From assembly GCA_964544585.1 (NCBI GenBank), contig CAZJBV010000003.1, positions 16,950 to 80,949 of the forward strand: a stretch of DNA of 64,000 nt. The letters are read 5' to 3'. Positions within the stretch are counted from its first letter, which is position 1, and each line of letters starts with the position of its first letter. The translations under genes were made by a program, and so were the position numbers. Positions 45,491-62,980 of this stretch are shown here, in pieces. A model generated the notes under the pieces. That model ran no database searches, had not been told where the DNA came from, and saw only the letters and a program-made list of their open reading frames with translations. The stretch is from an uncultured Gammaproteobacteria bacterium (GTDB lineage: Bacteria > Patescibacteriota > Microgenomatia > 2-02-FULL-39-11).

Positions 45491-46309
45491 ATGAATTATC
45501 GAAAGATTGATAATTGGCGAGAATATAAAGAACTTTCTGGTTTAAAAGATTTGCCAGATGCTCCAAAAGAAATCTACTATTTAGGAAATTGGAATCCAAA
45601 AATTTTTACAAACTGTGTCGCCATCGTCGGTAGTCGCAGAATGACAGAATATGGCCGGCGCGTAATTGAAAAAATAGTTCCCCAATTGGTTTTTGAGAAA
45701 AAGACAATTATCTCCGGATTTATGTATGGAGTGGATCAATATGCTCATCAAGTTTGTATAGAAAATAATGGCAAAACAATTGCCGTACTGGGATGGGGAA
45801 TTAATATTAAGCTTGAGGGAAATGATCGAAAACTCGCCGAAAAAATTATTAACTCCGGTGGACTCCTTCTATCTGAATGGGAAGATCAAAAAGGTAATCT
45901 TTGGACATTTCCCAAAAGAAATAGAATCATTGCCGCCCTTAGTCATGAAGTAATTATTATCGAAGCCGCGGTAAAAAGCGGCTCCCTCATTACCGCCAAT
46001 CTTGCCGGCAAACTAAAACGCACCCTTTGGGCAGTTCCCGGACCAATAACCAGTCCTACCTCTTTTGGCACAAATTCCCTTATTGCCCAAAATCAGGCCA
46101 TGATGTGGCTTGGGGGAAACCCGTCCAAACCAGCTCTTTCAAAAGATCCCCTATTAAATATGCTTCAAAGTGAGTCACTGACAACAAATGAAATTGCCAG
46201 AAAACTAAACCAATCTGTCGTCCAAACAGGCGCCCAACTATCGCTCCTTACCCTGTCCGGCCAAATAGTTGAAAAAGGAGGGAAGTATTATTTAAATTAT
46301 GTTGACTAA
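45491..46309 (+). CDS. dprA: DNA-processing protein DprA (Smf)
   Basis: The Rossmann-like DprA core contains IVGSRRMTEYG and SGSLITA. Confidence 0.8.
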   Translation: MNYRKIDNWREYKELSGLKDLPDAPKEIYYLGNWNPKIFTNCVAIVGSRRMTEYGRRVIEKIVPQLVFEKKTIISGFMYGVDQYAHQVCIENNGKTIAVLGWGINIKLEGNDRKLAEKIINSGGLLLSEWEDQKGNLWTFPKRNRIIAALSHEVIIIEAAVKSGSLITANLAGKLKRTLWAVPGPITSPTSFGTNSLIAQNQAMMWLGGNPSKPALSKDPLLNMLQSESLTTNEIARKLNQSVVQTGAQLSLLTLSGQIVEKGGKYYLNYVD

Positions 46310-47840
46310 AGTAAGTTCCGTTGCCAATATTGGACTTGAGACAATACCCATAGATGTTGAAGTTGATGTAGCCCAGGCCGGATTTCCTGGGTTTACCATC
46401 GTAGGACTTGCAAGTAAAGCAGTCGAGGAAGCCAGAGAGCGGGTAAAAACCGCCATCATCAATTCCGGTTTTGATTTTCCTCCCAAAAAAATAACCGTTA
46501 ATCTTGCCCCTGCTGATATCCCTAAAGATGGAGCAGCCTACGATCTGCCTATTGCCATAGGCATACTCCTCTCCAGCGGTCAGCTAACAATGGATGATTC
46601 AATTAATTTGGGAAAATCACTATTCTACGGCGAACTTTCACTGGACGGCACATTAAGACCTACTCGCGGAATTCTTCTTCTTGCCCTTTTTGCCAAAGAA
46701 AAATCATTTTCCACCATCTTCGTTCCAGAGATTTCGGCAGGTGAAGCCAGAGTCGTACCAGGTATAAATATAATGCCCTTAAAAACTTTGACCCAATTGG
46801 TAAACCACTTATCTGGAAAAACCACAGTTATTTCATTGGAGCATACCTCAATCAAAGATTCAATCGATGAAGTTTTGGCAGAATTTGATCTAAAAGATAT
46901 TGCCGGACAAGAACAAGCAAAAAGAGCTCTCATTATTGCTGCTGCCGGAGGGCACAATGTCCTCATGTGGGGACCGCCCGGAACAGGAAAAACCATGCTC
47001 GCCCGCTCACTCCCAGGTATACTTCCGCCGTTAACTCCAGAAGAGGCTCTCGAGGTGACCCGAATTTATTCTATCGCCGGACTTCTTTCCTCTGGAGAAT
47101 CTCTCATGAAAAAGCGTCCTTTTCGATCGCCACACCATGGTGTCTCTGCCGCAGGACTAATCGGAGGAGGAAGTAATCCCCTTCCTGGTGAAGTAAGTCT
47201 CTCCCACTTAGGCGTTTTATTCCTCGACGAAATGCCCGAATTTCAAAGGGGAGTTCTTGAAAGTCTCAGGCAACCCATGGAAGATGGTTTTATAGAAATT
47301 GTCCGAGTGTCAGGACACGTTCGCTATCCGGCAAGTTTTACATTAATCTCAGCAGTCAATCCCTGTCCCTGCGGCTATTTAGGTCATCCCAAAAAAGAAT
47401 GTAAATGTACTGAAAAACAAATTGCCAAATACAATCACAGGATCTCCGGACCTATTCTCGATAGGATAGATTTATATGTTTTAGTTTCCGTCATTGAAGC
47501 CGAAAAACTCTCCATCAATAGACCGAAAAGTAAAGATAACATCACCTCAAAACAAGCAAAAGACCTAGTATTAAAAACACGAAGAATCCAATACAAACGT
47601 TTTATGGGAATTTCAATATATACCAATTCTCAAATGAGAAATAAGGAAGTTAAAGAGTATTGTGAATTAACCCCTGAAGCAGAAAATCTTCTTAAATTGG
47701 CCTCAGATAAATATAATTTTTCCGCCAGAAGCTACTATCGCCTTATTAAAGTCTCCCGGACAATAGCAGACCTCGAAGGATCTAAAAAAATCTTTCCAAT
47801 CCACATGGCCGAAGCTCTTCAATACAAACAGCATATATGA
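46299..47840 (+). CDS. comM: YifB/ComM family Mg-chelatase-like AAA+ ATPase
   Basis: It has a Lon-like N-domain, a Walker A GPPGTGKT, and a Cys4 zinc motif CPCGYLGHPKKECKC. Confidence 0.8.
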   Translation: MLTKVSSVANIGLETIPIDVEVDVAQAGFPGFTIVGLASKAVEEARERVKTAIINSGFDFPPKKITVNLAPADIPKDGAAYDLPIAIGILLSSGQLTMDDSINLGKSLFYGELSLDGTLRPTRGILLLALFAKEKSFSTIFVPEISAGEARVVPGINIMPLKTLTQLVNHLSGKTTVISLEHTSIKDSIDEVLAEFDLKDIAGQEQAKRALIIAAAGGHNVLMWGPPGTGKTMLARSLPGILPPLTPEEALEVTRIYSIAGLLSSGESLMKKRPFRSPHHGVSAAGLIGGGSNPLPGEVSLSHLGVLFLDEMPEFQRGVLESLRQPMEDGFIEIVRVSGHVRYPASFTLISAVNPCPCGYLGHPKKECKCTEKQIAKYNHRISGPILDRIDLYVLVSVIEAEKLSINRPKSKDNITSKQAKDLVLKTRRIQYKRFMGISIYTNSQMRNKEVKEYCELTPEAENLLKLASDKYNFSARSYYRLIKVSRTIADLEGSKKIFPIHMAEALQYKQHI

Positions 47841-51500: not shown

Positions 51501-51563
51501 TGAGGAAGTATTATAGTGCAGCGGAGGTCGTAGACAAAATAATATTCCAACAATCCTCTTCAG

Positions 51564-51646
51564 TGCCGGGACCAGGATTCGAACCTGGGAAGGCGTGAGC
51601 CACATGATTTACAGTCATGCCCTGTTGGCCGCTTAGGTATCCCGGC
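51564..51646 (-). tRNA. tRNA-Tyr (anticodon GUA), type II long variable arm, CCA not encoded
   Basis: The cloverleaf was folded by hand from the reverse complement. Acceptor GCCGGGA/TCCCGGC is perfect. The anticodon stem CATGA/TCATG closes loop CTGTAAA. The variable arm is 14 nt (GGC-tcac-GCC). T-arm is CCAGG-TTCGAAT-CCTGG. The discriminator is A. Confidence 0.9.
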
Positions 51647-51647
51647 T

Positions 51648-51856
51648 TGGAGCCATTATATCAAATAGCTCGCACCTATTTTATCAAAAATTTTTGAAAC
51701 TTGATACTTTATTAAACTGTAGCAAGAAAAAGGGGTTTAAGGGGAAAATGAATTGCTACAGTTTCGCCAATCATTAAGCCTCGCTTCGCTCGGCTTTCTT
51801 TTTGCTTAGCCCTCCTTTCGGTCGGGTCTTCGCCTTCTCTCTTTGGGAAATTTTCG
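51648..51856. repeat. 209-bp inverted repeat, left copy (IR-L)
   Basis: It is 100% identical to the reverse complement of 62772-62980 by base-by-base comparison. It begins 2 nt from the tRNA-Tyr 5' end. It contains an internal 12-bp inverted repeat AAACTGTAGCAA...TTGCTACAGTTT. Confidence 0.9.
51655..51663 (-). promoter_or_regulatory. extended -10 promoter (TGATATAAT) for tRNA-Tyr inside IR-L
   Basis: TGnTATAAT ends 9 nt upstream of tRNA-Tyr +1. Confidence 0.5.
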
Positions 51857-52490
51857 TTATAAGGAAGGGGAAATTATTTTATAGAGTATTAGGTTTTTCT
51901 GATTCCGTCACAGCCCACCCACCCAATTTTTAGATGTAGGCGACTTCCCCCGCTTTGGGCGAGAGAGCTCCCTATGGGGAGCTTCGCTGGAAGTCATCTT
52001 GTTTTATCATCTCTTTACAGTCTCTTACTCGCTTCGGGAAGAATCGTTATCCATCCATACAGTCTTCGTCCCTCCGCTCACCTTGAGTTTGATTTAGTAT
52101 CGCCTGCCGTCGCGGGGGATATCCGCTTCCCCCTTTCGCTCATCCCGACTTTTCATCGGGATTCGCTATGTTCCCCCTTCCTGTGCTGGCTGGTCATCCC
52201 GCCATTGACATCGGCGGGATTCCGCCAGCACTAGGTGGGGGAGCCCCCGCCGCCTGATTTCTATCCCTTCCAGTGTCCGGTCGGCTCGTATCCCGCCTTT
52301 AGTCGGGATACTTCGCGCCTAGTTCGGACCGCTCACCCCGCGTTATCTTTATATAATGTATATCTCGCGGGGTTCGCCTTTGTCGGGAGCACTCTTACTT
52401 TATCTATTTGCCTTGATAGTCTTTCTGTCGTGCTCCCTCCTTTTAGGAAGCTACTATCCGATGGGGGCGGGGTCGGCGGATGTCGCCAAC
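51857..52490. ncRNA. GC-rich, hairpin-rich non-coding region (candidate large structured RNA)
   Basis: Local GC content is far above the genome background. Overlapping low-complexity ORFs fall on both strands with no protein-like sequence. There are several perfect 7-8-bp hairpins (AGCTCCC-TATG-GGGAGCT, ATCCCGCC-N9-GGCGGGAT, GTATCCCG-N8-CGGGATAC). Pyrimidine tracts and a TATAAT occur near 52352. Confidence 0.3.
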
Positions 52491-52850
52491 TTGGCCAATT
52501 ACTTTTTCCACTTGGCCATTTTCCACCATTTTGGCCAAGTTTCTTTTTCTGTTGGCCAATTAACTTGGCCAATTGGTGCATGGGCTTGTCCTGAGGCAAG
52601 TCGGAGGATATACTGGATTTATGAGTGACGATATTGGCCAATCAACAGATACATCTTCGGCTCCTCCGGTTTCCGATGTTCCATTGGCCAATACGCCAGA
52701 TTCCACTTGGCCAATTTCCACCAAAATGGCCAATGACCAACTACAAGAAGCATCACCATCTGGCCAATCAGCTAAAACTCCATTGGCCAATAACGATTCT
52801 GCATCGTCTCCGGACTTGGCCAATCAGGATGCAACCAGTTCTGGCCAAGT
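52491..52850. repeat. array of the palindrome TTGGCCAA(T), at least 13 copies, frequently about 21-bp spaced
   Basis: Exact or near-exact copies start at 52491, 52512, 52531, 52552, 52565, 52634, 52685, 52706, 52726, 52760, 52783, 52816 and 52840. Outliers are near 53100 and 53146. Copies occur in all three frames of the overlapping CDS, translated as LAN, WPI or GQS. Confidence 0.85.
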
Positions 52851-53685
52851 TACGACTTCACTAGACGCTTCTTCATCTCCCAATTTACCTAATCAGTCAT
52901 TACCGGCCGATTCCACTTCTTCCATATCTCCCCAACCTGCCTCGCCGGTAGACGGGTCACCCTCATCACTCCAATCTCCCACAGATAATTTACCCTCGCC
53001 TATTTCTGTTCCTTCACCATCAGTTGAACCATCCCAAATGCAATCCAGACCGTCAGATAGTCCTTCTCAAGATACTACAACTTCTACTCCTCCCGACTTG
53101 GCCACTATCAAGCCGGTGTCTCCACAAAGCCCCCAAAACACCTCATTGGCCAATGACAATTCTCAAAAAACAGAAGAAATTAAGCCCACATCTCCTCCCA
53201 AAAGTTCTTTTGGCGATATCCTAGCTAAAGAAAATCCGCCATCTTCATCTAATCCTTCTCCTCCTTCTACTTCTTCTAATCCTCCTAAACCGTCATCTTT
53301 CGGAAATATCCTACGAGGATACAGTTCTTCATCCCAATTAGACCAATCTTTGCATGATGAACCCAAAATTAATATAGAACCCGTCGTCCCACCAAAGCCA
53401 TCTCCGGCTGTTACTCCCCAGATCCCCCAACCACCCCAATTTCCCTTATCTCCCAATACAAGTGGCCTCCGCCAAAAAGCCAATCAAAAGCGACTCGACA
53501 AAAAACAAAAGAATCTCGACAGAATTATGCTCCTTATTAAAGAAACGGGAACTATCACAAACACAGATGTTCAAAGACTTTGTAGAGTTTCTCAAAGTAC
53601 GGCCACCAACTATCTTACTGAGCTGGAAAAGAAAGGTATGCTCAAACAAAAGGGTATTCGCGGTGGAGCAAAATATACTTTATGA
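52621..53685 (+). CDS. S/P/T-rich low-complexity protein with C-terminal winged-helix DNA-binding domain
   Basis: The Met at 52621 has a GGAGG SD 13 nt upstream. About 300 aa of disordered Ser/Pro-rich sequence carries a duplicated PxSSFG(D/N)IL motif. The C-terminus MLLIKETGTITNTDVQRLCRVSQSTATNYLTELEKKGMLKQKG is wHTH-like. Confidence 0.5.
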   Translation: MSDDIGQSTDTSSAPPVSDVPLANTPDSTWPISTKMANDQLQEASPSGQSAKTPLANNDSASSPDLANQDATSSGQVTTSLDASSSPNLPNQSLPADSTSSISPQPASPVDGSPSSLQSPTDNLPSPISVPSPSVEPSQMQSRPSDSPSQDTTTSTPPDLATIKPVSPQSPQNTSLANDNSQKTEEIKPTSPPKSSFGDILAKENPPSSSNPSPPSTSSNPPKPSSFGNILRGYSSSSQLDQSLHDEPKINIEPVVPPKPSPAVTPQIPQPPQFPLSPNTSGLRQKANQKRLDKKQKNLDRIMLLIKETGTITNTDVQRLCRVSQSTATNYLTELEKKGMLKQKGIRGGAKYTL

Positions 53686-54242
53686 AATCTAAACCCAGTG
53701 CACAAAACAAAAAGTCAGGGAAAAACAAATATGTCCTTGTTCCTCTTGCGCTTCTTTTATCTCTTTCCTCCTTTTTCGCAGGAACAAAGTATGAGAGCGA
53801 GATTAAAGATGCGATTGAAAACCAACCGGTTATAAATCAACAGCAGATCATAGAGTTTCCCACGGAAGCCAAAATTAAAAGAGTTATAGATGGAGATACT
53901 CTCGAGTTACAAAATGGACAAATCGTGCGACTTGTCGGAGTTAATACACCGGATCATGGACAACCATATGATGAAGAATCCACAGAGTTTACCAAAAAAC
54001 TCGTTGAAGAGAAAAAAGTAAATATTGAATATGATGAGTATAAATCAGACAGATTCGGAAGAATTCTTGCATACGTAGTAATAAACAACAAAAACCTCTC
54101 CATTGAATTAGCCAAACGAGGATTAGCCAAAGTTACTATCTACGAAAAAAGAAAACCACTTATTTATCAAGAGCAATTATTAAATGCCGAAAAAGAAGCA
54201 AAATTAAAAAAATTAGGTATTTGGAAAGCAGGTGATAAATAA
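53682..54242 (+). CDS. staphylococcal (micrococcal) nuclease homologue, secreted or anchored
   Basis: It has an N-terminal signal/TM segment. SNase motifs DGDT, RLVGVNTPD and DRFGRILAYV are present. Confidence 0.75.
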   Translation: MKSKPSAQNKKSGKNKYVLVPLALLLSLSSFFAGTKYESEIKDAIENQPVINQQQIIEFPTEAKIKRVIDGDTLELQNGQIVRLVGVNTPDHGQPYDEESTEFTKKLVEEKKVNIEYDEYKSDRFGRILAYVVINNKNLSIELAKRGLAKVTIYEKRKPLIYQEQLLNAEKEAKLKKLGIWKAGDK

Positions 54243-54523
54243 TGGATTTTCAAATAGCAGCTTTACAATTTTTATCAGGTGGCATGGGAGGATTAGTCAG
54301 AGCAGTTGTTGGTATCACTAAAGCCAAAGAATTCGATCCCGAAAAATTCAAATTTCAGTGGAAATATTTCGCAATCACTATTATTGTGTCTATAATCACC
54401 GGTCAAATGGCTGGACTTATTGCAAATGCCGACTGGCGTATGTCCTTATTAGCTGGCTACGCAGGGAGTGATTTTTTGGAGAGCCTATACAAATTAAGAT
54501 TTGCACAATTTTTTAAGTCATGA
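54242..54523 (+). CDS. small hypothetical membrane protein
   Basis: The 93-aa product has two hydrophobic segments. It is translationally coupled to both neighbours. Confidence 0.35.
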   Translation: MDFQIAALQFLSGGMGGLVRAVVGITKAKEFDPEKFKFQWKYFAITIIVSIITGQMAGLIANADWRMSLLAGYAGSDFLESLYKLRFAQFFKS

Positions 54524-54577
54524 AGATATAGACTTAGAAATTTAAAATAAATATATTATTTTATCTTTAGATTTATA

Positions 54578-55939
54578 ATGGCTATTAAAATTAGTAAGAG
54601 CCCACAATTAATTTTTTCTGCACGAGCTTTAATTTTTATTGCAGTTTCCTTCTTGTTTTATCTACTTATAAATTATTTTTATCTTAAGTATACCGCGATA
54701 AATGAAATCCAAGATTACTTAAAGAATGCCAATAATAGGATAGTCTCTGACTTAGCTTATAAAAATGATAAGTGGGACACGACAGCGTATATAAATGATA
54801 GTCAAACAATTCAGGATAATCCTTTATATATATTAACAATAGATGGATTTGTTATCGACAGAATTAAACCAATAAATGGCTTTCTTGATACGTCCGATTT
54901 TATGTTTGGTTCTTCTTTTACAACTCCCAAAACTGTTTCAATCTTAGAAAGTGAAACATGGAGGTTGTATTCAAAAAAAATAATTAGAGAAAATAATATA
55001 TTTGGTACTATACTAGTGGGAGATTTCCAACCGGAAACCACAGAATTAAAAAATATAGATGATGAACTAATTAAGACAGCAGATATGATATTATCTCAGA
55101 TTAAGATCAGTAATAGTGAAATTGATATCTCAGAACTGGATTTAAAAAGAATTAATGTCAGACATTACGTAGAAATAATTGATAGATTTAATCGCTCAAT
55201 AGAAAGCGTTGGTAGTGGAATACCAGCTTATATTGATAGAAGTTATGTTGCAAATGAATTAAACGAAAATTATAAGACAGTTTATGATACGAAGAGTAAA
55301 GAGCCTTTCCTAGTATACTCAAAACCTATTTTCGATATGTCAAATGATCCAATTGGTATAGTTATAAGTGGCTATTCGCTAAAACAAATCTTCATGAATC
55401 TTAGAAACCAGCTTATCTTTTTAACCATAAGTGGTTTGTCAGTAATTATATTTATATTCATATTTCTGATTCTTATATTTCAAAGAAATTTAGCATTTTT
55501 AATCAAGAATCCAAGAGCTGCGCTATTTGGCTTTTCTGGGAAACACGATGAGGCAAATTCAAAAATGGTCCTTGAGGTGGACCAAAATATAGACGGTACA
55601 GTCGTAATAAACTTCCAGGGTAAATTATATAAAATTAGTAAGCCGGAATTTGATAGTGAATCAGATCAACTAATTGAAAGATTAATGGATTTGGTTCAAC
55701 CAGATACTAAAGAGATTGAATATGATGGTTTAAAAGATGAGCAATTAAAATTAAGTACCCCTCTGAGCAGACTTGTAACAAGGCTTGGATTTGTTGGATT
55801 AAAAAGAGACTTATTTTTTCCTCGTACATCTAAACAGAGAGTTTATTTTCGAAGATATCTGACACACAATGACTTAGTAGTTATGAATATAACTACTGAG
55901 CAAATTCTTACTGATCTATTTGTATCTTCGCAAACTTAG
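54578..55939 (+). CDS. two-TM membrane protein with large extracytoplasmic domain and about 140-aa cytoplasmic tail (sensor-like, no recognisable output domain)
   Basis: TM1 spans about aa 17-37 and TM2 about aa 285-310. No catalytic motif was recognised. Confidence 0.35.
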   Translation: MAIKISKSPQLIFSARALIFIAVSFLFYLLINYFYLKYTAINEIQDYLKNANNRIVSDLAYKNDKWDTTAYINDSQTIQDNPLYILTIDGFVIDRIKPINGFLDTSDFMFGSSFTTPKTVSILESETWRLYSKKIIRENNIFGTILVGDFQPETTELKNIDDELIKTADMILSQIKISNSEIDISELDLKRINVRHYVEIIDRFNRSIESVGSGIPAYIDRSYVANELNENYKTVYDTKSKEPFLVYSKPIFDMSNDPIGIVISGYSLKQIFMNLRNQLIFLTISGLSVIIFIFIFLILIFQRNLAFLIKNPRAALFGFSGKHDEANSKMVLEVDQNIDGTVVINFQGKLYKISKPEFDSESDQLIERLMDLVQPDTKEIEYDGLKDEQLKLSTPLSRLVTRLGFVGLKRDLFFPRTSKQRVYFRRYLTHNDLVVMNITTEQILTDLFVSSQT

Positions 55940-56154
55940 CAAACTAAAACTAGGTCTACACAGGTCGGCATAAGTCTTTTTATATCTCACAAGCCTCATT
56001 TAATTACATATCTTTTAAGATGAGATTATCAGCAAAACAAATTATAAATTTATGAATTATTAACTGAAAAAAATGTTTCATCCTTATATATCGGCAATAA
56101 TCTTTATTTTAATTTGGCTACTAATTATAGTGTTATTATTTAAGACTTTATAAT

Positions 56155-56919
56155 ATGTTAAAAATTTCTGGAAAAAATTTAGCAGAATTAGCTTTACCAA
56201 ATACTTGTTCTACTTGCTTTAGAATTAAGGTAAATTTGGACGCACAAATGAGTATCGAGCGTAAGAAAATTCCCTATCAAATGCCTATGCCAGGAATTTT
56301 CGCTAATTTAGATTCGCATATAAAACAAGTTGTAAAACATTATTTTGAAATGCATGGTAGAGTGCCTTCATGGTTTCCAAATATTGGAAGCCAAATAGTT
56401 AGCATTGAATCTCCACCAGGCTGGCAAAAATTCAACGCTTTTATTTCTGAATATAACATCTTTTTGACTGGCGCTCTTGATGTCGTTTTTAAATTAAATG
56501 ATGGTTCATTTGCGTTTGGTGATTATAAAACAGCAAGATTCTCTGAAATGCACGATAGTTTAATACCCTTATACAAAGCTCAATTACATAATTATCTAGA
56601 AATTGCAAAAAGAAAAGGAATTTTTACTCCTGTTTCTAAGTTATTTTTAATTTATGCAGAACCCCTGGACTATAAACCTTACGATGGAATATATCAACTC
56701 ACAGATTTCGAGAAGCTTTTTAAATTGCATTTCAGAGTCATACCAAAACTATTAGAAATCGATACTTATTTGACAGAAAACTTATTAAAGAAGGCTCGCT
56801 CAATTATGAGTAAGCATAATCCTGAAGCATTACCTAATTGTCCAAATTGCGCTTTGAGGACGAGGCTATATAATGAAGAATGTTTGCTAAGATCATCTAA
56901 TAAAGAACAAATAGTATGA
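56155..56919 (+). CDS. putative PD-(D/E)xK-fold nuclease with CxxC...CxxC
   Basis: The core reads GALDVVF...FAFGDYK (D...D-x-K). It has an N-terminal CSTC and a C-terminal CPNC. Confidence 0.4.
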   Translation: MLKISGKNLAELALPNTCSTCFRIKVNLDAQMSIERKKIPYQMPMPGIFANLDSHIKQVVKHYFEMHGRVPSWFPNIGSQIVSIESPPGWQKFNAFISEYNIFLTGALDVVFKLNDGSFAFGDYKTARFSEMHDSLIPLYKAQLHNYLEIAKRKGIFTPVSKLFLIYAEPLDYKPYDGIYQLTDFEKLFKLHFRVIPKLLEIDTYLTENLLKKARSIMSKHNPEALPNCPNCALRTRLYNEECLLRSSNKEQIV

Positions 56920-59900
56920 ATAACTCTATATTAAATTTTATAAGATATTGCCTTAGTTACGTAAAATTAACCAGAAACCGAACTATACTAGATCAGCAGA
57001 AATACTCTGTTGATCTTCCGATGGATTATTTTGGGTTACTTGGTTTATTAAACGGAGATACGGATGAAAAGAATGGTGAGTTAATAAACCTAAAAACTTT
57101 CTATTCCTACGATCCCAAAAATGTTCCAGATGATGAGTTAAGTATTTATGAGAAAGAAAAAGAATTAGCAAACAAGATCGAGGAAATTTATAACAAATAT
57201 CGTAACGACCAATATACAAAGCAAGTAATTTTAAGTTTTGGATATTTCGAAATTGAAATTCCTATCGAAGAGAATGGCGACGTTGTTACACAAGCGGAAC
57301 AAGAGTCAGACGAAAAGCTAACTAAAACCAAAGTTGATCGCTATCCGCTTTTTTCATTACCGGTGAGAATAGAGAAAGAAATTCGCCAAATTGGAGTTGG
57401 AGAATATCTAGTTTACTTCGTTGATCCTGAAGTTCAAGTAAATATCGGAATACTAGAACCATTACTAGGGGAAGATCTATATTTTCAACTTTTGGAAGAA
57501 ATTGGGAAATACGAAATTGAAGGAAGACTAACATTACCAATATTAGATTTAGAAATATTTAAAGAGATTTGGCACAAAATAAAGGCACAATTGCGCTTAA
57601 AAAATGCCAAATTTAATGAACAATCTTTTTCATTAGAAGAAGTAAAAATAGCCCTTGGCCCCAAAGCAAATTACTTCCTCGCAGAGGATCTAGCTAAATT
57701 GAGTCAATTAACAGAGGAAGAGCTTTCTAAAACTGCCCTTACATGTTGGACAGAAGATGAAGGATTAAATGTTGAAAGTGATATTCCACAAGAAAAAGAT
57801 TTATATTTTCCCTTTTTATATGATAAATATCAGCTCTCCTCTCTATCAATACTTGGAAACGTCGCCTCAATTGTTCAGGGACCACCTGGAACAGGAAAAT
57901 CGGAAACGATTTCAAATATACTTTGCCACCTAGCTGCCACTGGAAAAAAAGTTTTATTCGTTAGTCAAAAAGCACAGGCTCTTAAGGTTGTTAAAGATAA
58001 ACTAAAAAAGCTAGAAATAAGGTATTTATTTGGATATTTGCCTAACCCAAATTCTGCTCAAATCGGAGAAGAGGATGAAGCTGACGGTATTGCGCCTCAA
58101 CTGAGCGCTATTGGTTCACATATAGAAAAGATGAGTTTTACACAATATTCAAGTTCTAAATTCGCTCGCTATGTAGATAAAAGTGAAGTAGCTAGCTTGA
58201 TTCATTCTGCTGTTGAAGAAAAAACTGTTAAACGAACTTCATTGAATAGCGTAATTAATGCTCAGAGAAAATATTATCAACTAAACCAAGAACTTTTAAA
58301 TCTTAAAGAATATGACATTGACATTACTGATTTTAGTTATTTCACTCAAACATTCTCATCATTTGAGTGGCAGGAAATCAAGAAAGCAAAAGCGGAAATA
58401 GAAAATCTTAGTGAAATAATAAAAAAATATGAACTAAGTAATGAAAAAAAGGAATATGATAGTCTTTTTCCTTCACTCAATAGAAACCTTGGAGAAATCG
58501 CTGACCAGATTGGAACTATCAGAGATGATGTTGATAAAACAGGTTTTGACCGTCATTCAAAATTTTTGAGAAAAATAAATAACATGAGCCGCGATTTCCG
58601 TCTTAGTAATATTCGTGGAAAGCTCCCACGAGAGATTATCGATCATGTAGATAATATTTTACAAGCTGATAAATCAAGAAGCGAGCAAATAAAATTACTC
58701 GATAATCTCTATAATCATTGTTCCTATTTCAAAAACATTCGGATGCTTAATGGATTTGAAGAAGCCTTAAATCAAAGATTAAATATATGTGGTGTTTCAG
58801 ATAAAGAATTTAAAATTATAGATGAAAAAATTAACAAATCTGCTTCTGCATCTTTAGACGATATCAAAGCTAAAATCCTACGAGTTCAGGAAATAAAATA
58901 TGAACTAGAAATGCTCAAAAAGACTGAAAGCCCAAATAAGATATCTTTAGCAGTGAAGCGTTTCGAACAAAACAGAGTAAAACGTGTGGGGCAATATATT
59001 CAAAATATTATTAATCAAGGAATACTTGAAAAATGGAGGTCAGGTGTAACAATTAAGCAAATTGTAAGAAAACTAGCTAGTGCTTTTGGAAAATCAAAAA
59101 AGGCATTCAAGACCTTTGATAATCTACGTAAAGACATAAACAATTTTAATGCAATTCTTGATTTGATTCCTATTTGGATCATGGAACTCGATGATGCAAG
59201 TCGCATTATTCCACTTGAGGTTGGCATTTTCGATTATGTAATTTTAGATGAAGCATCGCAATGTAATGTAGCATATACCTTGCCAGTCATGTACAGGGCG
59301 AAGAAAATATTATTTGTGGGAGATAGTGAACAAATGCGAGATAGTACTATAATGTTTAAGTCTAATAGGGTTTTTGATGAACTTGCTCGCAGATATCAAA
59401 TTCCTGAGGAAAGACAAATAAAAGCGACTGGAACTTCAGTGCAATCTGTCTTGGATATTGGTTATAAACGAGGTTTCATGGATCGTCCACTTAGATATCA
59501 TTATCGGTCGCCTGCAGAATTAATTGGCTTTAGTAATAAATACTTCTACAAACCAAAAGGTAAAGAATTAATACCAGTTAATAACAATTACCTATCTTAT
59601 AAAGATACGAACCGTATAATGTTTGTACATGAGGTTAAATCTAATTGGAAGGAAGAATTCTCTGATAACATAAACGTTGCAGAGGCAAACAGAATACTTA
59701 AGCTTTTTAAAGAATTGCGAAGTGATATTCGTTATCGAGATAAATCTATTGGTATTTTAACTTTCTTTAATGCACAAGCTGCTTTTATCCGAGATCTTTT
59801 TGAAAAAGAAGGTTATAAAGAAGAAGAGGATAATTACAAAATTAGCATTATTGAAGGTATACAAGGAGACGAAAAAGATATTGTTTTTTACTCATTTGTT

Positions 59901-60479
59901 ATTAGATCCATTGAACAGAAAAATAAGTACGTACCTCTAACTGGTGAAGGAGGAGATCTCCGATCAGATATAAATAAGGGTCGAGTGAATGTTGCTTTTT
60001 CGCGAGCAAAACTACAAGTGCATTGTTTTGTTAGTCTTCCACCTAATGAAATGCCAGAAAGAATTTGGCTAAAGAAATACCTTGAGTATATACATGACAA
60101 TGGTGCAGTTGAATTTTATTCAGATGATCTTAAAACTTTTGATTCCTATTTTGAAGAAGAATTTTATGCGTTATTGCGAAAAAACTTAAAGCGTGGTCAT
60201 AAGATCCAAAATCAGGTAAGAAGTTGTGGATTTAAAATTGATTTTGTTGTTAGCAATTTAAATTCTGGAAAACGTTTAGCGATCGAGTGCGACGGTCCAT
60301 GCCATTTTAAAGATGAATTAGATGAGTCATATGGCATCTATGTGGGAAGCGATGAAGAAAGACAAGCTGTACTAGAAGCTGCTGGATGGAAGTTTTGCCG
60401 GATCAAATATTCAGATTGGATTGACGAAAAATTTGATCGCAATATTGTTACTCAATCAATAATGAATTTACTAAAATAA
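56916..60479 (+). CDS. Upf1-like SF1B helicase with N-terminal unknown region and C-terminal DUF559 (Vsr/restriction-endonuclease-like) domain
   Basis: Walker A is GPPGTGKS, motif II is VILDEASQ, motif V is GIQGDEKDIVFYS, and motif VI is GRVNVAFSRAK. The C-terminal domain reads KRLAIECDGPCHF...AAGWKFCRIKYSDW. Total length is 1187 aa. Confidence 0.75.
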   Translation: MNNSILNFIRYCLSYVKLTRNRTILDQQKYSVDLPMDYFGLLGLLNGDTDEKNGELINLKTFYSYDPKNVPDDELSIYEKEKELANKIEEIYNKYRNDQYTKQVILSFGYFEIEIPIEENGDVVTQAEQESDEKLTKTKVDRYPLFSLPVRIEKEIRQIGVGEYLVYFVDPEVQVNIGILEPLLGEDLYFQLLEEIGKYEIEGRLTLPILDLEIFKEIWHKIKAQLRLKNAKFNEQSFSLEEVKIALGPKANYFLAEDLAKLSQLTEEELSKTALTCWTEDEGLNVESDIPQEKDLYFPFLYDKYQLSSLSILGNVASIVQGPPGTGKSETISNILCHLAATGKKVLFVSQKAQALKVVKDKLKKLEIRYLFGYLPNPNSAQIGEEDEADGIAPQLSAIGSHIEKMSFTQYSSSKFARYVDKSEVASLIHSAVEEKTVKRTSLNSVINAQRKYYQLNQELLNLKEYDIDITDFSYFTQTFSSFEWQEIKKAKAEIENLSEIIKKYELSNEKKEYDSLFPSLNRNLGEIADQIGTIRDDVDKTGFDRHSKFLRKINNMSRDFRLSNIRGKLPREIIDHVDNILQADKSRSEQIKLLDNLYNHCSYFKNIRMLNGFEEALNQRLNICGVSDKEFKIIDEKINKSASASLDDIKAKILRVQEIKYELEMLKKTESPNKISLAVKRFEQNRVKRVGQYIQNIINQGILEKWRSGVTIKQIVRKLASAFGKSKKAFKTFDNLRKDINNFNAILDLIPIWIMELDDASRIIPLEVGIFDYVILDEASQCNVAYTLPVMYRAKKILFVGDSEQMRDSTIMFKSNRVFDELARRYQIPEERQIKATGTSVQSVLDIGYKRGFMDRPLRYHYRSPAELIGFSNKYFYKPKGKELIPVNNNYLSYKDTNRIMFVHEVKSNWKEEFSDNINVAEANRILKLFKELRSDIRYRDKSIGILTFFNAQAAFIRDLFEKEGYKEEEDNYKISIIEGIQGDEKDIVFYSFVIRSIEQKNKYVPLTGEGGDLRSDINKGRVNVAFSRAKLQVHCFVSLPPNEMPERIWLKKYLEYIHDNGAVEFYSDDLKTFDSYFEEEFYALLRKNLKRGHKIQNQVRSCGFKIDFVVSNLNSGKRLAIECDGPCHFKDELDESYGIYVGSDEERQAVLEAAGWKFCRIKYSDWIDEKFDRNIVTQSIMNLLK

Positions 60480-60565
60480 TTATATTCAATTTATGTTTGA
60501 ATTTAAAAAGGTAAACAAAAGTAAAGTGGAAGAAAATTTGATATAGAACTAAATGGAGTAAATTA

Positions 60566-61399
60566 ATGAAAGATAAATATTCAGCAATTTGGGTCTCACA
60601 CTCATCAATAAGTGATTATCTCAAGTGTCCCCGAGCTTATTATCTCAAAAACGTATATAAGGATCCCAAAAATAATCACAAAATAAATATCATGTCTCCT
60701 TCATTAGCTTTAGGCCAAACAGTACATAAAGTCATTGAGTCTATATCTACTCTTCCGGTAGAAAGAAGATTTGAAAAGTCCCTTCTCGATCTTTACGAGA
60801 TATATTGGCAAAAGATATCGGGCGAAAAAGGAGGATTTAGTCATAAAGATGAGGAAGAAAACATCAAACAACAAGGAAAGGAAATGATACAGAGAGTAAT
60901 TAATAATCCGGGTCCTTTAAAAAGAAAAGCTATAAAAATTAGAGAGGACTTACCTTATTTTTGGTTATCAGAAGTTGACAATATTATTCTTTGCGGGAAG
61001 ATAGATTGGTTGGAATATATAGTCGAAAGCGATAGTGTGAAAATTATAGATTTTAAAACTGGTAAGTATGATGAAGACCCAAATTCACTTCAATTGCCTA
61101 TTTATCATTTATTGGTCAAAAATAGCCAGTCAAAAAACATTGTAGGTGTAGCTTACTGGTACTTGGATAGAGATAATGAACCCATAGATGCTTCTTTACC
61201 ATCCTATCAAGAAGCAAGTCAGAGAGTATTGGAAATTGCTAAACACATTGTGTTGGCGCGAAAATTAGAACGGTTTGTATGTGGAAGAAGAGACGGATGT
61301 ATGTTTTGCCATCCATTTGAGACAATTCTTGTGGGAAAAGCTAAATTTGTTGGTGAAGATGATTTTCGTCATGATTTATACGTTATTTCACATAGATGA
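60566..61399 (+). CDS. Cas4/RecB-like PD-(D/E)xK nuclease with four-Cys cluster
   Basis: An N-terminal Cys sits in YLKCPRAYYL. The nuclease core is GKIDWL...IIDFKTGK with a QLPIYHLL QxxxY motif. The C-terminus carries CGRRDGCMFC (C-x5-C-x2-C). Confidence 0.6.
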   Translation: MKDKYSAIWVSHSSISDYLKCPRAYYLKNVYKDPKNNHKINIMSPSLALGQTVHKVIESISTLPVERRFEKSLLDLYEIYWQKISGEKGGFSHKDEEENIKQQGKEMIQRVINNPGPLKRKAIKIREDLPYFWLSEVDNIILCGKIDWLEYIVESDSVKIIDFKTGKYDEDPNSLQLPIYHLLVKNSQSKNIVGVAYWYLDRDNEPIDASLPSYQEASQRVLEIAKHIVLARKLERFVCGRRDGCMFCHPFETILVGKAKFVGEDDFRHDLYVISHR

Positions 61400-61662
61400 T
61401 TATCAAAATAGTATTAAAAATTGATATAGTGTCTTTTCTTGAAAATAGAGTGGCTTTATTTGGTGTTTGGTACTTATCTTTCCGTAAACAGAAGCATAAG
61501 GCGAAAGATATTTTGGATAAGATTGCTATTTTCACTCTCCATTTTCTTGGTATCTTTTCACTTTTTTATCTTAAATCAATAGCCTTTATTTTATGTCTTA
61601 TCTATCGTTTATCTTCTGGGATTACTAAAGATAAGTTAGATCACTGGCTGAATAAAAAATGA
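61396..61662 (+). CDS. small hypothetical membrane protein
   Basis: The 88-aa product is hydrophobic. It overlaps both neighbouring genes (ATGA junctions). Confidence 0.35.
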   Translation: MIIKIVLKIDIVSFLENRVALFGVWYLSFRKQKHKAKDILDKIAIFTLHFLGIFSLFYLKSIAFILCLIYRLSSGITKDKLDHWLNKK

Positions 61663-62756
61663 ATCTTAAGAAAATATTTAATTTTAAATTTAATTTTTTA
61701 GTATTAGTTGTTATTTCTTTTTACTTTTTCTCAATCCAAATGAATTTCATAAATAAAAGACTTGATAAAATAGAAAATAAATTAGGCGGTACCAAAAAAA
61801 TTACCTGCAATGAAAAGGATACTATAGAAAGAGTCCGGCAGTCGGTGGTAAGGATAATTGGCGGGGAATCAGAAGGATCAGGCTTTGCCATCAAAGAAAA
61901 CGGATTAATACTGACTAATTTTCATGTCATCCAGTTTGAACCGAGCCCAAAAGTGGTTTTGCCGGATAATACTTTTCAAACTGCGGAAATTATCATGGCG
62001 GATAAGAATTCCGACCTTGCAATAATAAAAATAAAAAGAGATTTACCCGTTATATCCTGGGGTGAGCCATCAGAACTTGATCCTGCTGAGGAACTTCTGG
62101 CTATAGGGTTTCCTCTGGGCGGCATACTTAAAGGTGAAGCATCCGTCAATAAAGGATCATTATCAGGCAGAAGAAGATCAAAAGATGTGGGAGTTGAGTA
62201 TTTACAGACAGATACTACGCTTACTCAAGGAGTAAGCGGAGGGCCGATGACCAATATCTGCGGTGAGGTTGTAGCTATCAATACAGCCGGATTATCCGGA
62301 TTGGGTTTGGGAATATCAGCCGATTCCATCAAACAGAAATGGCTCGAGATGGCCACCGCCAAAGACTCGCTTAAGGATGTACATAAAATTACTTTTGAAC
62401 CTGATAAAAGTCCGCTGGAAGCAGTACGTGCCTTTTATAATTATCTTAAAGCAAGAAAGCTGGAAAAAGCTTTTGAACTTTTATCCGATAATTTCAAGAA
62501 GGGCTACAGTTTTGATAACTGGAAAAAAGGATATGAACCTCTTTTGGATACTACAGTTATCAAAATAGACGATGACAAAGAGAATGAAAACAGGGTAAAT
62601 ATTAAACTTTCCACAAAAGATATGGTAAGTGATGAAATAGTTTATAAATATTTTGAAGGTTACTGGGATGTGAAAAGTGCGGATGGAAAATGGCTGTTAT
62701 GGGATCCGGAAATTAAAGAAGTTATAAAACCGGATTTCTTTTGGTTTTACGAATAA
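61659..62756 (+). CDS. trypsin-like (S1 family) serine protease with N-terminal signal anchor and about 150-aa C-terminal extension
   Basis: The catalytic triad context is TNFHV (His), DLAII (Asp) and GVSGGP (Ser). The stop lies 15 bp before IR-R. Confidence 0.65.
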   Translation: MNLKKIFNFKFNFLVLVVISFYFFSIQMNFINKRLDKIENKLGGTKKITCNEKDTIERVRQSVVRIIGGESEGSGFAIKENGLILTNFHVIQFEPSPKVVLPDNTFQTAEIIMADKNSDLAIIKIKRDLPVISWGEPSELDPAEELLAIGFPLGGILKGEASVNKGSLSGRRRSKDVGVEYLQTDTTLTQGVSGGPMTNICGEVVAINTAGLSGLGLGISADSIKQKWLEMATAKDSLKDVHKITFEPDKSPLEAVRAFYNYLKARKLEKAFELLSDNFKKGYSFDNWKKGYEPLLDTTVIKIDDDKENENRVNIKLSTKDMVSDEIVYKYFEGYWDVKSADGKWLLWDPEIKEVIKPDFFWFYE

Positions 62757-62771
62757 GAGTCATAAAAATTT

Positions 62772-62980
62772 CGAAAATTTCCCAAAGAGAGAAGGCGAAG
62801 ACCCGACCGAAAGGAGGGCTAAGCAAAAAGAAAGCCGAGCGAAGCGAGGCTTAATGATTGGCGAAACTGTAGCAATTCATTTTCCCCTTAAACCCCTTTT
62901 TCTTGCTACAGTTTAATAAAGTATCAAGTTTCAAAAATTTTTGATAAAATAGGTGCGAGCTATTTGATATAATGGCTCCA
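62772..62980. repeat. 209-bp inverted repeat, right copy (IR-R)
   Basis: Its reverse complement equals 51648-51856 exactly. Confidence 0.9.
62965..62973 (+). promoter_or_regulatory. extended -10 promoter (TGATATAAT) inside IR-R, reading outward
   Basis: This is the mirror copy of the tRNA-Tyr promoter. Confidence 0.45.

Follow-up and report, generated by a model that had tools for sequence, protein, structure and literature searches.

A 64,000-nucleotide stretch of DNA (contig CAZJBV010000003.1, positions 16,950 to 80,949; referred to below as the window) was found to carry an array of short palindromes that extends over the predicted promoter and the beginning of a gene encoding a winged helix-turn-helix (wHTH) protein. 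The array is a real, conserved feature that is selected at the nucleotide level. The explanation we favor, to which we assign a probability of roughly one half, is that it serves as a cis-acting platform of double-stranded DNA, a multi-site operator to which a dimeric protein with two-fold symmetry would bind by recognizing its sequence. The features discussed are summarized in Table 1.

In total, the word TGGCCA occurs 27 times in the window: 13 copies are clustered within 356 bp (the last core ends at 52847), two more lie 250-300 bp downstream of this main cluster, giving about 15 copies in all, and 12 are found elsewhere. Dinucleotide shuffles predict approximately 12 copies outside the array, the number that is observed, while the expectation for the 356 bp is 0.067 (Poisson P ~1e-25). 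The density in the array, 36.5/kb, compares with 0.19/kb in the rest of the window, an enrichment of ~190-fold, and none of 100 dinucleotide shuffles of the window reached the observed total. The array of 13 palindromes in the original prediction, which was made from the sequence alone, is thus real, with the cluster enriched and the remaining copies at chance level. That prediction assigned the 8-mer TTGGCCAA to every position; nine of the 13 copies match it exactly, and the other four deviate at one flanking base (TTGGCCAT at 52512, ATGGCCAA at 52726, and CTGGCCAA at 52760 and 52841). Three of its positions were off by one (52684, 52707, and 52841 are correct), and its start of the coding sequence, 52621, was right. 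The most common spacing between nearest neighbors is 19-24 bp, as had also been noted. Neither a second cluster of this kind nor another hexamer pair at 19 bp was found in the 64-kb window, and the word does not behave as a dispersed repeat of the REP (repetitive extragenic palindrome) or MITE (miniature inverted-repeat transposable element) type.

Conservation of the palindromes and selection on the nucleotide word

The contigs that carry homologues at 30-60% protein identity were located. All close relatives, among them a paralogue that the same metagenome-assembled genome (MAG) has on a different contig, keep the sites at matching offsets, with five copies upstream of the gene, approximately eight in its first 300 nt, and a pair 48 bp apart further in. 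In loci L002, L006, and L007, the upstream copies are found at -106/-85/-66/-45/-33 or -128/-107/-88/-67/-55 from the ATG. Of the 14 array loci that were scanned, 12 keep the spacing of the distal pair and two, L014 and L009, lack the pair, and TGGCCA reaches 5.8/kb in the 14 array loci versus 0.16/kb across 91 kb of their flanks. DNA alignment shows the sites as islands of identity amid diverged flanks, and the persistence across orthologues, which the original prediction had put forward as a check, is thereby borne out.

A codon test that pooled eight array-bearing genes showed that Trp-Pro is encoded by TGGCCA in 10 of 10 cases, Gly-Gln by GGCCAA in 18 of 20, Ala-Asn by GCCAAT in 36 of 41, and Leu-Ala by TTGGCC in 31 of 44. 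These word-coded dipeptides lie far above the genes' own usage, in which CCA makes up 39% of the Pro codons and TTG 26% of the Leu codons, and every Trp in the array-bearing proteins belongs to a site. Coding sites occur in all three reading frames, where they are read as LAN, WPI, and GQS, as reported before, and also as MAN and GQV; frame use is uneven, with 74% of the coding sites in the 14 array-bearing loci in the xTG-GCC-Rxx frame. The codon bias and the retention of sites amid diverged flanks show that selection acts on the nucleotide word and not on the protein, as had been claimed.

The logo of 197 sites revealed that the conserved unit is longer than the hexamer. The extended site is a nearly reverse-complement-symmetric 12-mer, AATYGGCCRATT, with symmetry out to +/-6 and with T at -1 in 68%, A at +1 in 75%, T at +2 in 72%, and A at -3 in 53% of the sites. 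Such a nearly symmetric 12-mer is as expected for a dimeric binder, in agreement with what the sequence had first suggested. L009 contains 11 copies of CGGCCG and none of TGGCCA, and L013, L029, L039, L043, and L065 contain a mixture of TGGCCG, CGGCCA, and CGGCCG; the core is thus YGGCCR. Hexamers paired at a distance of 19-20 nt are always mutually complementary (TGGCCA/TGGCCA, CGGCCG/CGGCCG, or CGGCCA/TGGCCG).

YGGCCR is the specificity of EaeI/CfrI, TGGCCA that of MscI, and CGGCCG that of EagI. Together with the lineage-specific presence or absence of the sites, this would fit a cluster of targets for a YGGCCR-, TGGCCA-, or GGCC-specific methyltransferase acting as an epigenetic switch or as a SeqA-like sequestration region, and a role related to restriction-modification had been left open originally. 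We find this hardly credible. Conservation reaches the 12-mer, beyond the site of any such enzyme, TGGCCA in the rest of the window is neither avoided nor in excess, and a search confined to the 64-kb window identified no methyltransferase or restriction enzyme gene. The array resembles the GATC clusters of oriC, the dnaA promoter, and pap, on which Dam, SeqA, and Lrp act, in being a dense set of short palindromes that match a methyltransferase specificity in a regulatory region, but it differs from them in its flanks, conserved to 12 bp, and in having no signal in the rest of the 64-kb window.

Genome and metagenome scans yielded ~95 non-redundant family loci, 62 of which had sufficient upstream sequence to be classified. 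Fourteen have 8-17 sites, 14 have exactly one pair, TGGCCA-N13-TGGCCA, and 33 are without hexamers; L084 fits no class. In the hexamer-less class the pair is replaced by an A-rich tract, and in many members the low-complexity region of the protein houses an M23 peptidase domain; alternative palindromes were looked for in these relatives and none was found. Both hexamers of the core unit are invariant in a six-locus alignment, and the same pair is the sole hexamer pair in the 14 more distant loci. Judged by these sequences, the array arose by expansion of an ancestral hexamer pair with a 19-bp spacing, and the pair 52512/52531 of the window is that unit. The intragenic duplicate of the core unit is kept in all array-bearing loci as WPxSTxxAN, and three-site blocks have been duplicated again in P0011/L010 and L014.

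Two conserved forms of the 13-bp spacer, ATTTCCACCATTT and ATTTCGCCCATTT, are found in the core unit. In L061, L075, and L069, where the core unit lies just upstream of the ATG, the spacer is an exact reverse complement between unchanged flanks. Since such an inversion in place leaves the duplex as it was and alters the loop of an RNA, a function as double-stranded DNA is favored. The spacer variants CCACC and CGCCC each occur in both orientations, so that the 7-bp inverted repeats seem to have given rise to inversion more than once. A DnaA box in the spacer was considered and rejected: TTTTCCACC fits a relaxed box at eight of nine positions, and the TTCGCCCA variant of other lineages does not.

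This history of copying could also reflect a self-propagating palindromic micro-repeat, a hairpin-prone unit that spreads locally via replication slippage, template switching, and segmental duplication, is tolerated in low-complexity coding sequence, and is functional only as the promoter pair. The duplication of an entire 33-bp unit into the coding sequence, the re-duplicated blocks, the spacer inversions as a product of template switching at short inverted repeats, and a copy number of 8 to 17 among lineages all agree with such spreading. Single intragenic copies are nevertheless held at constant offsets across the whole range of protein identity while the sequence between them diverges, and whole arrays have been switched jointly from TGGCCA to CGGCCG. 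Constant offsets and joint switching argue for purifying or concerted selection on every copy, and we regard the micro-repeat as rather improbable.

Table 1. Positions of the array and of the features associated with it in the window
Feature	Position	Strand	Remarks
Covarying structured element, candidate large noncoding RNA	51902..52489	not assigned	Ends 2 nt before the first palindrome
Five upstream palindromes	52491..52573	.	Between structured element and promoter; cores start at 52492, 52513, 52532, 52553, 52566
Putative ancestral core unit TTGGCCA-N13(TTTTCCACCATTT)-TGGCCAA	52511..52539	.	Hexamers 19 bp apart
Promoter-like site TTGTCC-17-TATACT	52586..52614	+	From consensus scan; -10 box ends 6 nt before the ATG
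wHTH gene, 354-aa product	52621..53685	+	Start matches the deposited protein; MSDD/MADD N-terminus conserved in homologues
Eight intragenic palindromes	52634..52848	.	First 230 nt of the coding sequence, three frames; cores start at 52635, 52685, 52708, 52727, 52761, 52784, 52817, 52842
Intragenic duplicate of the core unit, TTCCACTTGGCCAATTTCCACCAAAATGGCCAA	52701..52733	.	Encodes TWPISTKMAN; 33 bp, 88% identical to 52506-52538
Lone CGGCCG-type copy, ACCGGCCGATTC	52900..52913	.	Read as PAD; same word used throughout the L009 array
Distal site pair	53098..53154	.	Cores start at 53099 and 53147, 48 bp apart; inside conserved protein segment DLAxIKPEP...APLAN
Downstream accompanying genes	53682..54523	+	Membrane-anchored staphylococcal-nuclease homologue (Pfam SNase) and 93-aa holin-like membrane protein (weak holin match)

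The upstream structured element and the predicted promoter

A gene-free stretch of 51% G+C separates the array from a tRNA-Tyr gene (minus strand, 51563-51646) and contains a covarying structured element. Across loci whose proteins are 30-55% identical, this element retains 70-80% nucleotide identity, and with nhmmer it was detected directly upstream of the wHTH open reading frame, in constant relative orientation, in ~55 non-redundant loci of all three classes. It measures 450-610 nt (e.g. L007 4281-4867, L014 105-715, and L017 461-933). In a 28-sequence alignment, 41 of the 90 predicted pairs show compensatory changes, a number reached by none of 500 shuffles, and 90.5% of the cells are paired versus 44-51% after sliding of the partners; the domain of the element is closed at 51935-52487 of the window by long-range helices. 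No non-tRNA family of Rfam 15 reached its gathering score in the window, where the sub-threshold matches on the element scored 13-18 bits (E ~1-10) versus gathering scores of 59-96, and six related loci gave no non-tRNA match at E <= 1. The element is a candidate for a new class of large noncoding RNA in Microgenomates. It is similar to GOLLD, ROOL, OLE, and HEARO, large bacterial RNAs that often lie near tRNAs, in its length, in being G+C-rich within an A+T-rich genome, in its multi-helix covariation, and in having tRNA genes next to it in six loci, but differs in having no Rfam match and in being always tied to one protein family.

As to the strand, the alifold energies are -199 and -207, the G-U and A-C counts in shared helices are 13 and 14, and single-sequence minimum free energies favor plus in eight of 28 cases. 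Two conserved G-U pairs at helix ends favor the plus strand, and tRNAs downstream on the minus strand, present in six loci, favor that one. Different minus-strand tRNA genes lie a few hundred nucleotides upstream of the element in five of ~40 loci (the one in the window, L065 334-406, L079 912-1133, L083 1224-1296, and L093 1954-2027). The module of RNA and wHTH gene is present in at least two diverged copies per genome, as exemplified by L008 and L010 (same MAG), by the window and L002 (same MAG), and by L046 and L080, which are ~10 kb apart in opposite orientation on contig Ga0209542_10008396.

The close proximity of array and element bears on an RNA-level explanation, in which the self-complementary UUGGCCAA words would act in a read-through or antisense transcript of the neighboring large RNA or in the wHTH mRNA itself, and hairpins (e.g. 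52512/52531) or intermolecular kissing duplexes would set the RNA end, control translation, or multimerize RNAs. The array starts 2 nt past the closing helices of the covarying 590-nt structure, RNAalifold makes a 7-bp hairpin of the conserved pair, and the palindrome is identical on whichever strand is transcribed; the invariable complementarity of the paired hexamers fits as well, but these pairs represent only about three independent events and are equally predicted by a symmetric protein complex. The inverted spacers described above argue against an RNA loop, the upstream copies fall outside the mRNA if the -10-like box is the promoter, the flanks are without the covariation that would lengthen the hairpin, and at least eight strong self-pairing words in the coding sequence would hamper translation. 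On balance, we consider an action at the RNA level unlikely. An intrinsic terminator formed by the hexamer pair was discarded, with a loop of 13 nt and a U-tract in some lineages only.

Upstream of the conserved MADD/MSDD start codon, a TAnnnT box is found at a distance of 6-9 nt in 45 of 47 loci, and 39 of these have a TG two bases upstream; the overall pattern is TGnTAnAnT (region 52604-52621 in the window). None of the 47 loci has a word resembling a Shine-Dalgarno sequence in the -15 to -5 interval; GGAGGA at 52604-52609 of the window sits just upstream of the interval scanned. Box, TG, and the missing Shine-Dalgarno-like word together point to a promoter of the extended -10 type and to an mRNA that is leaderless or nearly so. 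The whole wHTH family looks leaderless, which we deem unusual enough to deserve attention in bacteria of the Candidate Phyla Radiation (CPR). In eight of nine single-pair loci, 18-19 nt separate the end of the proximal hexamer from the -10-like box, which corresponds to the -35 position (the exception is L067, with 33 nt). In the window, the sites span about -130 to +230 and overlap the predicted promoter of the wHTH gene, so that the array does appear to lie over the gene's own promoter, as originally proposed, to the extent that a consensus-based box can be taken as one.

A proposed multi-site operator and the protein that may bind it

For the multi-site operator we propose the following scheme. 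The unit would be the 12-bp palindrome, and its ancestral form a single pair of sites, the promoter-proximal copy of which would lie at the -35 position of the extended -10 promoter; this promoter would directly follow the gene for the large structured RNA and drive a leaderless operon of wHTH protein, nuclease, and membrane protein. In the Gottesmanbacteria lineage, the site would have been multiplied to 13-17 copies, including a transfer of the whole 33-bp unit into the coding region, until the copies covered the span seen in the window, plus a pair near +480/+530. The receiving coding stretch, being of low complexity and rich in Ser and Pro, would tolerate the Trp-Pro, Leu-Ala-Asn, and Gly-Gln imposed on it. 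Protein bound there would make the -35 region inaccessible and would either block the first few hundred base pairs or draw them into a loop, which would result in cooperative, switch-like control. With the encoded wHTH protein as the binder, the operon would be autoregulated, which is plausible.

The scheme has direct support in the sites themselves, their conservation, the selection at the nucleotide level, their placement with respect to the promoter-like box, and a core unit that is indifferent to orientation. Binding by a protein, repression as its effect, and the identity of the binder are what we infer. Precedents are found in the lac O1/O2/O3, gal OE/OI, and deo operators, where palindromic sites for a symmetric protein likewise lie over a promoter and inside a coding sequence that must accommodate the operator word; these systems have two to three operators, compared with the 13-17 copies described here, which are irregularly spaced at 12-70 bp and use all three frames of a low-complexity segment, and only here is the binder a candidate.

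Several observations weigh against the operator. Selection for RNA-RNA pairing would yield a 12-nt self-complementary word of identical appearance, and the CGGCCA...TGGCCG pairs in L013, L029, and L031 are also predicted by a hairpin; the palindromic 12-mer and the always complementary hexamer pairs fit an RNA hairpin and a symmetric protein complex equally well. Coherent helical periodicity of 10-11 bp is absent from the array (the mean cosine at 10.5 bp is 0.14, a value equaled by 844 of 5000 random placements), and the phasing of about 21 bp in the original prediction, correct for nearest neighbors, is not significant as a long-range property. The promoter and the leaderless start are themselves predictions from consensus. 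The remaining points concern the wHTH protein: its recognition helix, VSQSTATNYL, is invariant over all three classes, including the 33 relatives without hexamers, it accompanies TGGCCA, CGGCCG, and mixed arrays alike, and at no column of the 75-residue C-terminal alignment can the 28 members with hexamers be told apart from the 33 without.

The 354-aa product is identical to a deposited 'winged helix-turn-helix transcriptional regulator' of Candidatus Gottesmanbacteria, encoded on the 245-kb contig JACPKX010000017.1 of MAG GCA_016186845.1. It begins with a long Ser/Pro/Thr-rich, low-complexity N-terminal part, which is presumably disordered, continues with two SFGDIL motifs and a basic helix, and ends in a winged helix. 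The presence of the latter, read from the sequence at the outset, was confirmed by a Pfam MarR/HTH_24 match at residues 301-342 and by an AlphaFold2 model with a pLDDT (predicted local distance difference test) of 83 and an H-S-H-H-wing topology, whose closest solved folds are the CadC, ROK, and MarR repressors. The gene adjacent to the array thus encodes a wHTH of the DNA-binding type, as would be expected of an autoregulatory operator. The basic helix is conserved in all classes and leads into the wHTH; it comprises 29 residues (53440-53530 of the window, residues ~274-300), and the invariant R, A, N, and R of its R-xx-AN-xx-R motif, at i, i+3, i+4, and i+7, form one helix face, which recalls the basic region of basic leucine zipper (bZIP) proteins. 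Two variants of the wing occur, an RGGAKY-type and a GK[A/G]KAT-type, and both are seen with and without hexamers. In L011/L016, L050-L060, L100, and other loci, all hexamer-less, an M23 domain precedes the basic helix and the wHTH, with no annotated signal-peptide or transmembrane domain. M23 peptidases normally degrade the cell wall, and the fusion of such a domain to one of the DNA-binding type is odd.

The likeness to MarR, ROK, and ArsR autorepressors lies in the fold of the encoded C-terminal domain, which matches theirs, and in sites that overlap the -35 region of the gene's own (predicted) promoter. Here, however, the MarR dimerization helices are absent, a Ser/Pro-rich region of ~270 residues and the basic helix stand ahead of the domain, and the recognition helix does not vary with the sites. 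From the invariant helix, and from the absence of any residue that tracks the sites, the wHTH protein probably recognizes something common to the whole family. The encoded protein, originally regarded as the obvious binder, is therefore weakened in that role; it is still the default candidate and a plausible one.

A further possibility, which we view as unlikely, is that the array is part of an as yet undescribed RNA-protein-DNA module of Microgenomates. A new structured RNA class of 450-610 nt would then be universally coupled to a single wHTH family, the invariant helix would recognize the RNA or its gene, and the array would be a lineage-specific tether or insulator of the RNA-protein pair, or a self-complementary tract for RNA multimerization, and not a conventional operator.

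Genomic context and significance

The window is an ordinary piece of chromosome. Upstream, it carries a his operon and genes for redox enzymes and for LexA-like and Crp-like regulators, and downstream a low-GC, defence-like island. This context bears on the proposal that the repeats are iterons, or the partition centromere, of a replicon or integrated element, with the wHTH protein as initiator or centromere-binding protein. Several repeats ~20 bp apart do lie beside a winged-helix gene, the first three to four copies alone share a unit of 19-21 bp that can be read as direct repeats (TTTTCCAC..TTGGCCAA), and the GC skew changes sign near 52-54 kb. Tandem Repeats Finder called no tandem unit in the array, however, the conserved core is a palindrome, and the region, at 51% G+C, has no AT-rich DNA unwinding element. 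No Rep, ParA, ParM, TubZ, DnaA, or DnaN gene was found in the window or in the homologous loci (13 loci with gene tables), the contig of 245 kb is chromosomal with housekeeping genes on either side, and gene orientation is constant across the skew change. The module is, moreover, present at least twice per genome, even twice on one contig, and most family members have two hexamers or none. We consequently regard this part of the original prediction as very unlikely.

Compared with plasmid iterons (RepA/RepE/Pi) and their inverted-repeat operators, the array is alike in its ~20-bp repeats by a winged-helix gene and in the palindromes over the promoter of that gene; a Rep-family protein, a replicon, and an AT-rich unwinding element are missing, the core is palindromic and not directional, and the module is multi-copy and chromosomal. 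With the tubC/TubR and parC/ParR centromeres it shares many closely placed short sites open to cooperative coating, which overlap a promoter (as in parC), but it lacks a partner NTPase and is not plasmid-borne. The GC skew is strongly negative over 52000-54000, with the sign change near 54 kb, because of the C-rich Ser/Pro coding stretch and the island that follows. A replication origin at the skew minimum was rejected on this ground, as well as by the absence of dnaA and dnaN, the lack of a switch in gene orientation, and the several modules per genome.

Downstream, the gene order wHTH, nuclease, and holin-like protein is kept in L002, L006, L007, L010, and L014 and swapped in L013. PADLOC and PHROGs assigned these three genes to no known defence or phage system; only window-specific genes further downstream are defence-like. 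The latter lie in a locus-specific low-GC (30-33%) island at 54500-62760, which is probably a defence island and encodes a 1187-aa helicase of superfamily 1 with a REase_MTES_1575 nuclease domain (PADLOC PDC-S37-like), two Cas4-like PD-(D/E)XK nucleases, and a trypsin-like protease. Approximately 11 kb are bracketed by a perfect inverted repeat of 209 nt (51648-51856 and 62772-62980), and each arm contains a TTGATA...TGATATAAT promoter; one arm faces the tRNA-Tyr gene, and the other a small G+C-rich, hairpin-rich, RNA-like sequence from 62981 that has no Rfam match. The repeat stems from a recent duplication or from gene conversion of a promoter region, or else it is an artefact of assembly. 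Terminal inverted repeats of a mobile element were rejected as its identity, since it appears to represent a duplicated promoter region and other loci do not keep it. DprA and ComM-like competence genes are located at 45491-47840, 5 kb upstream of the operon with the membrane-anchored nuclease, which may reflect a link to DNA uptake or coincidence. Literature searches on TTGGCCAA, structured RNAs of the CPR, and a LexA motif in Patescibacteria returned nothing relevant.

If it is an operator, the array shows with unusual clarity a regulatory DNA word that overrides protein sequence, to the point that every Trp in these proteins is present owing to the requirement for TGGCCA, and it illustrates that cis-elements can be accommodated in coding regions of low complexity. 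To our knowledge, almost no transcription-factor sites are known in the CPR, and the array provides a concrete candidate for a regulatory site in this group. The upstream structured element may represent a new class of large noncoding RNA. Taken together, structured RNA, wHTH protein, secreted nuclease, and holin-like protein, sometimes with the M23 peptidase fusion, form a widespread multi-copy cassette that may bear on DNA handling or host attack by these ultra-small bacteria.

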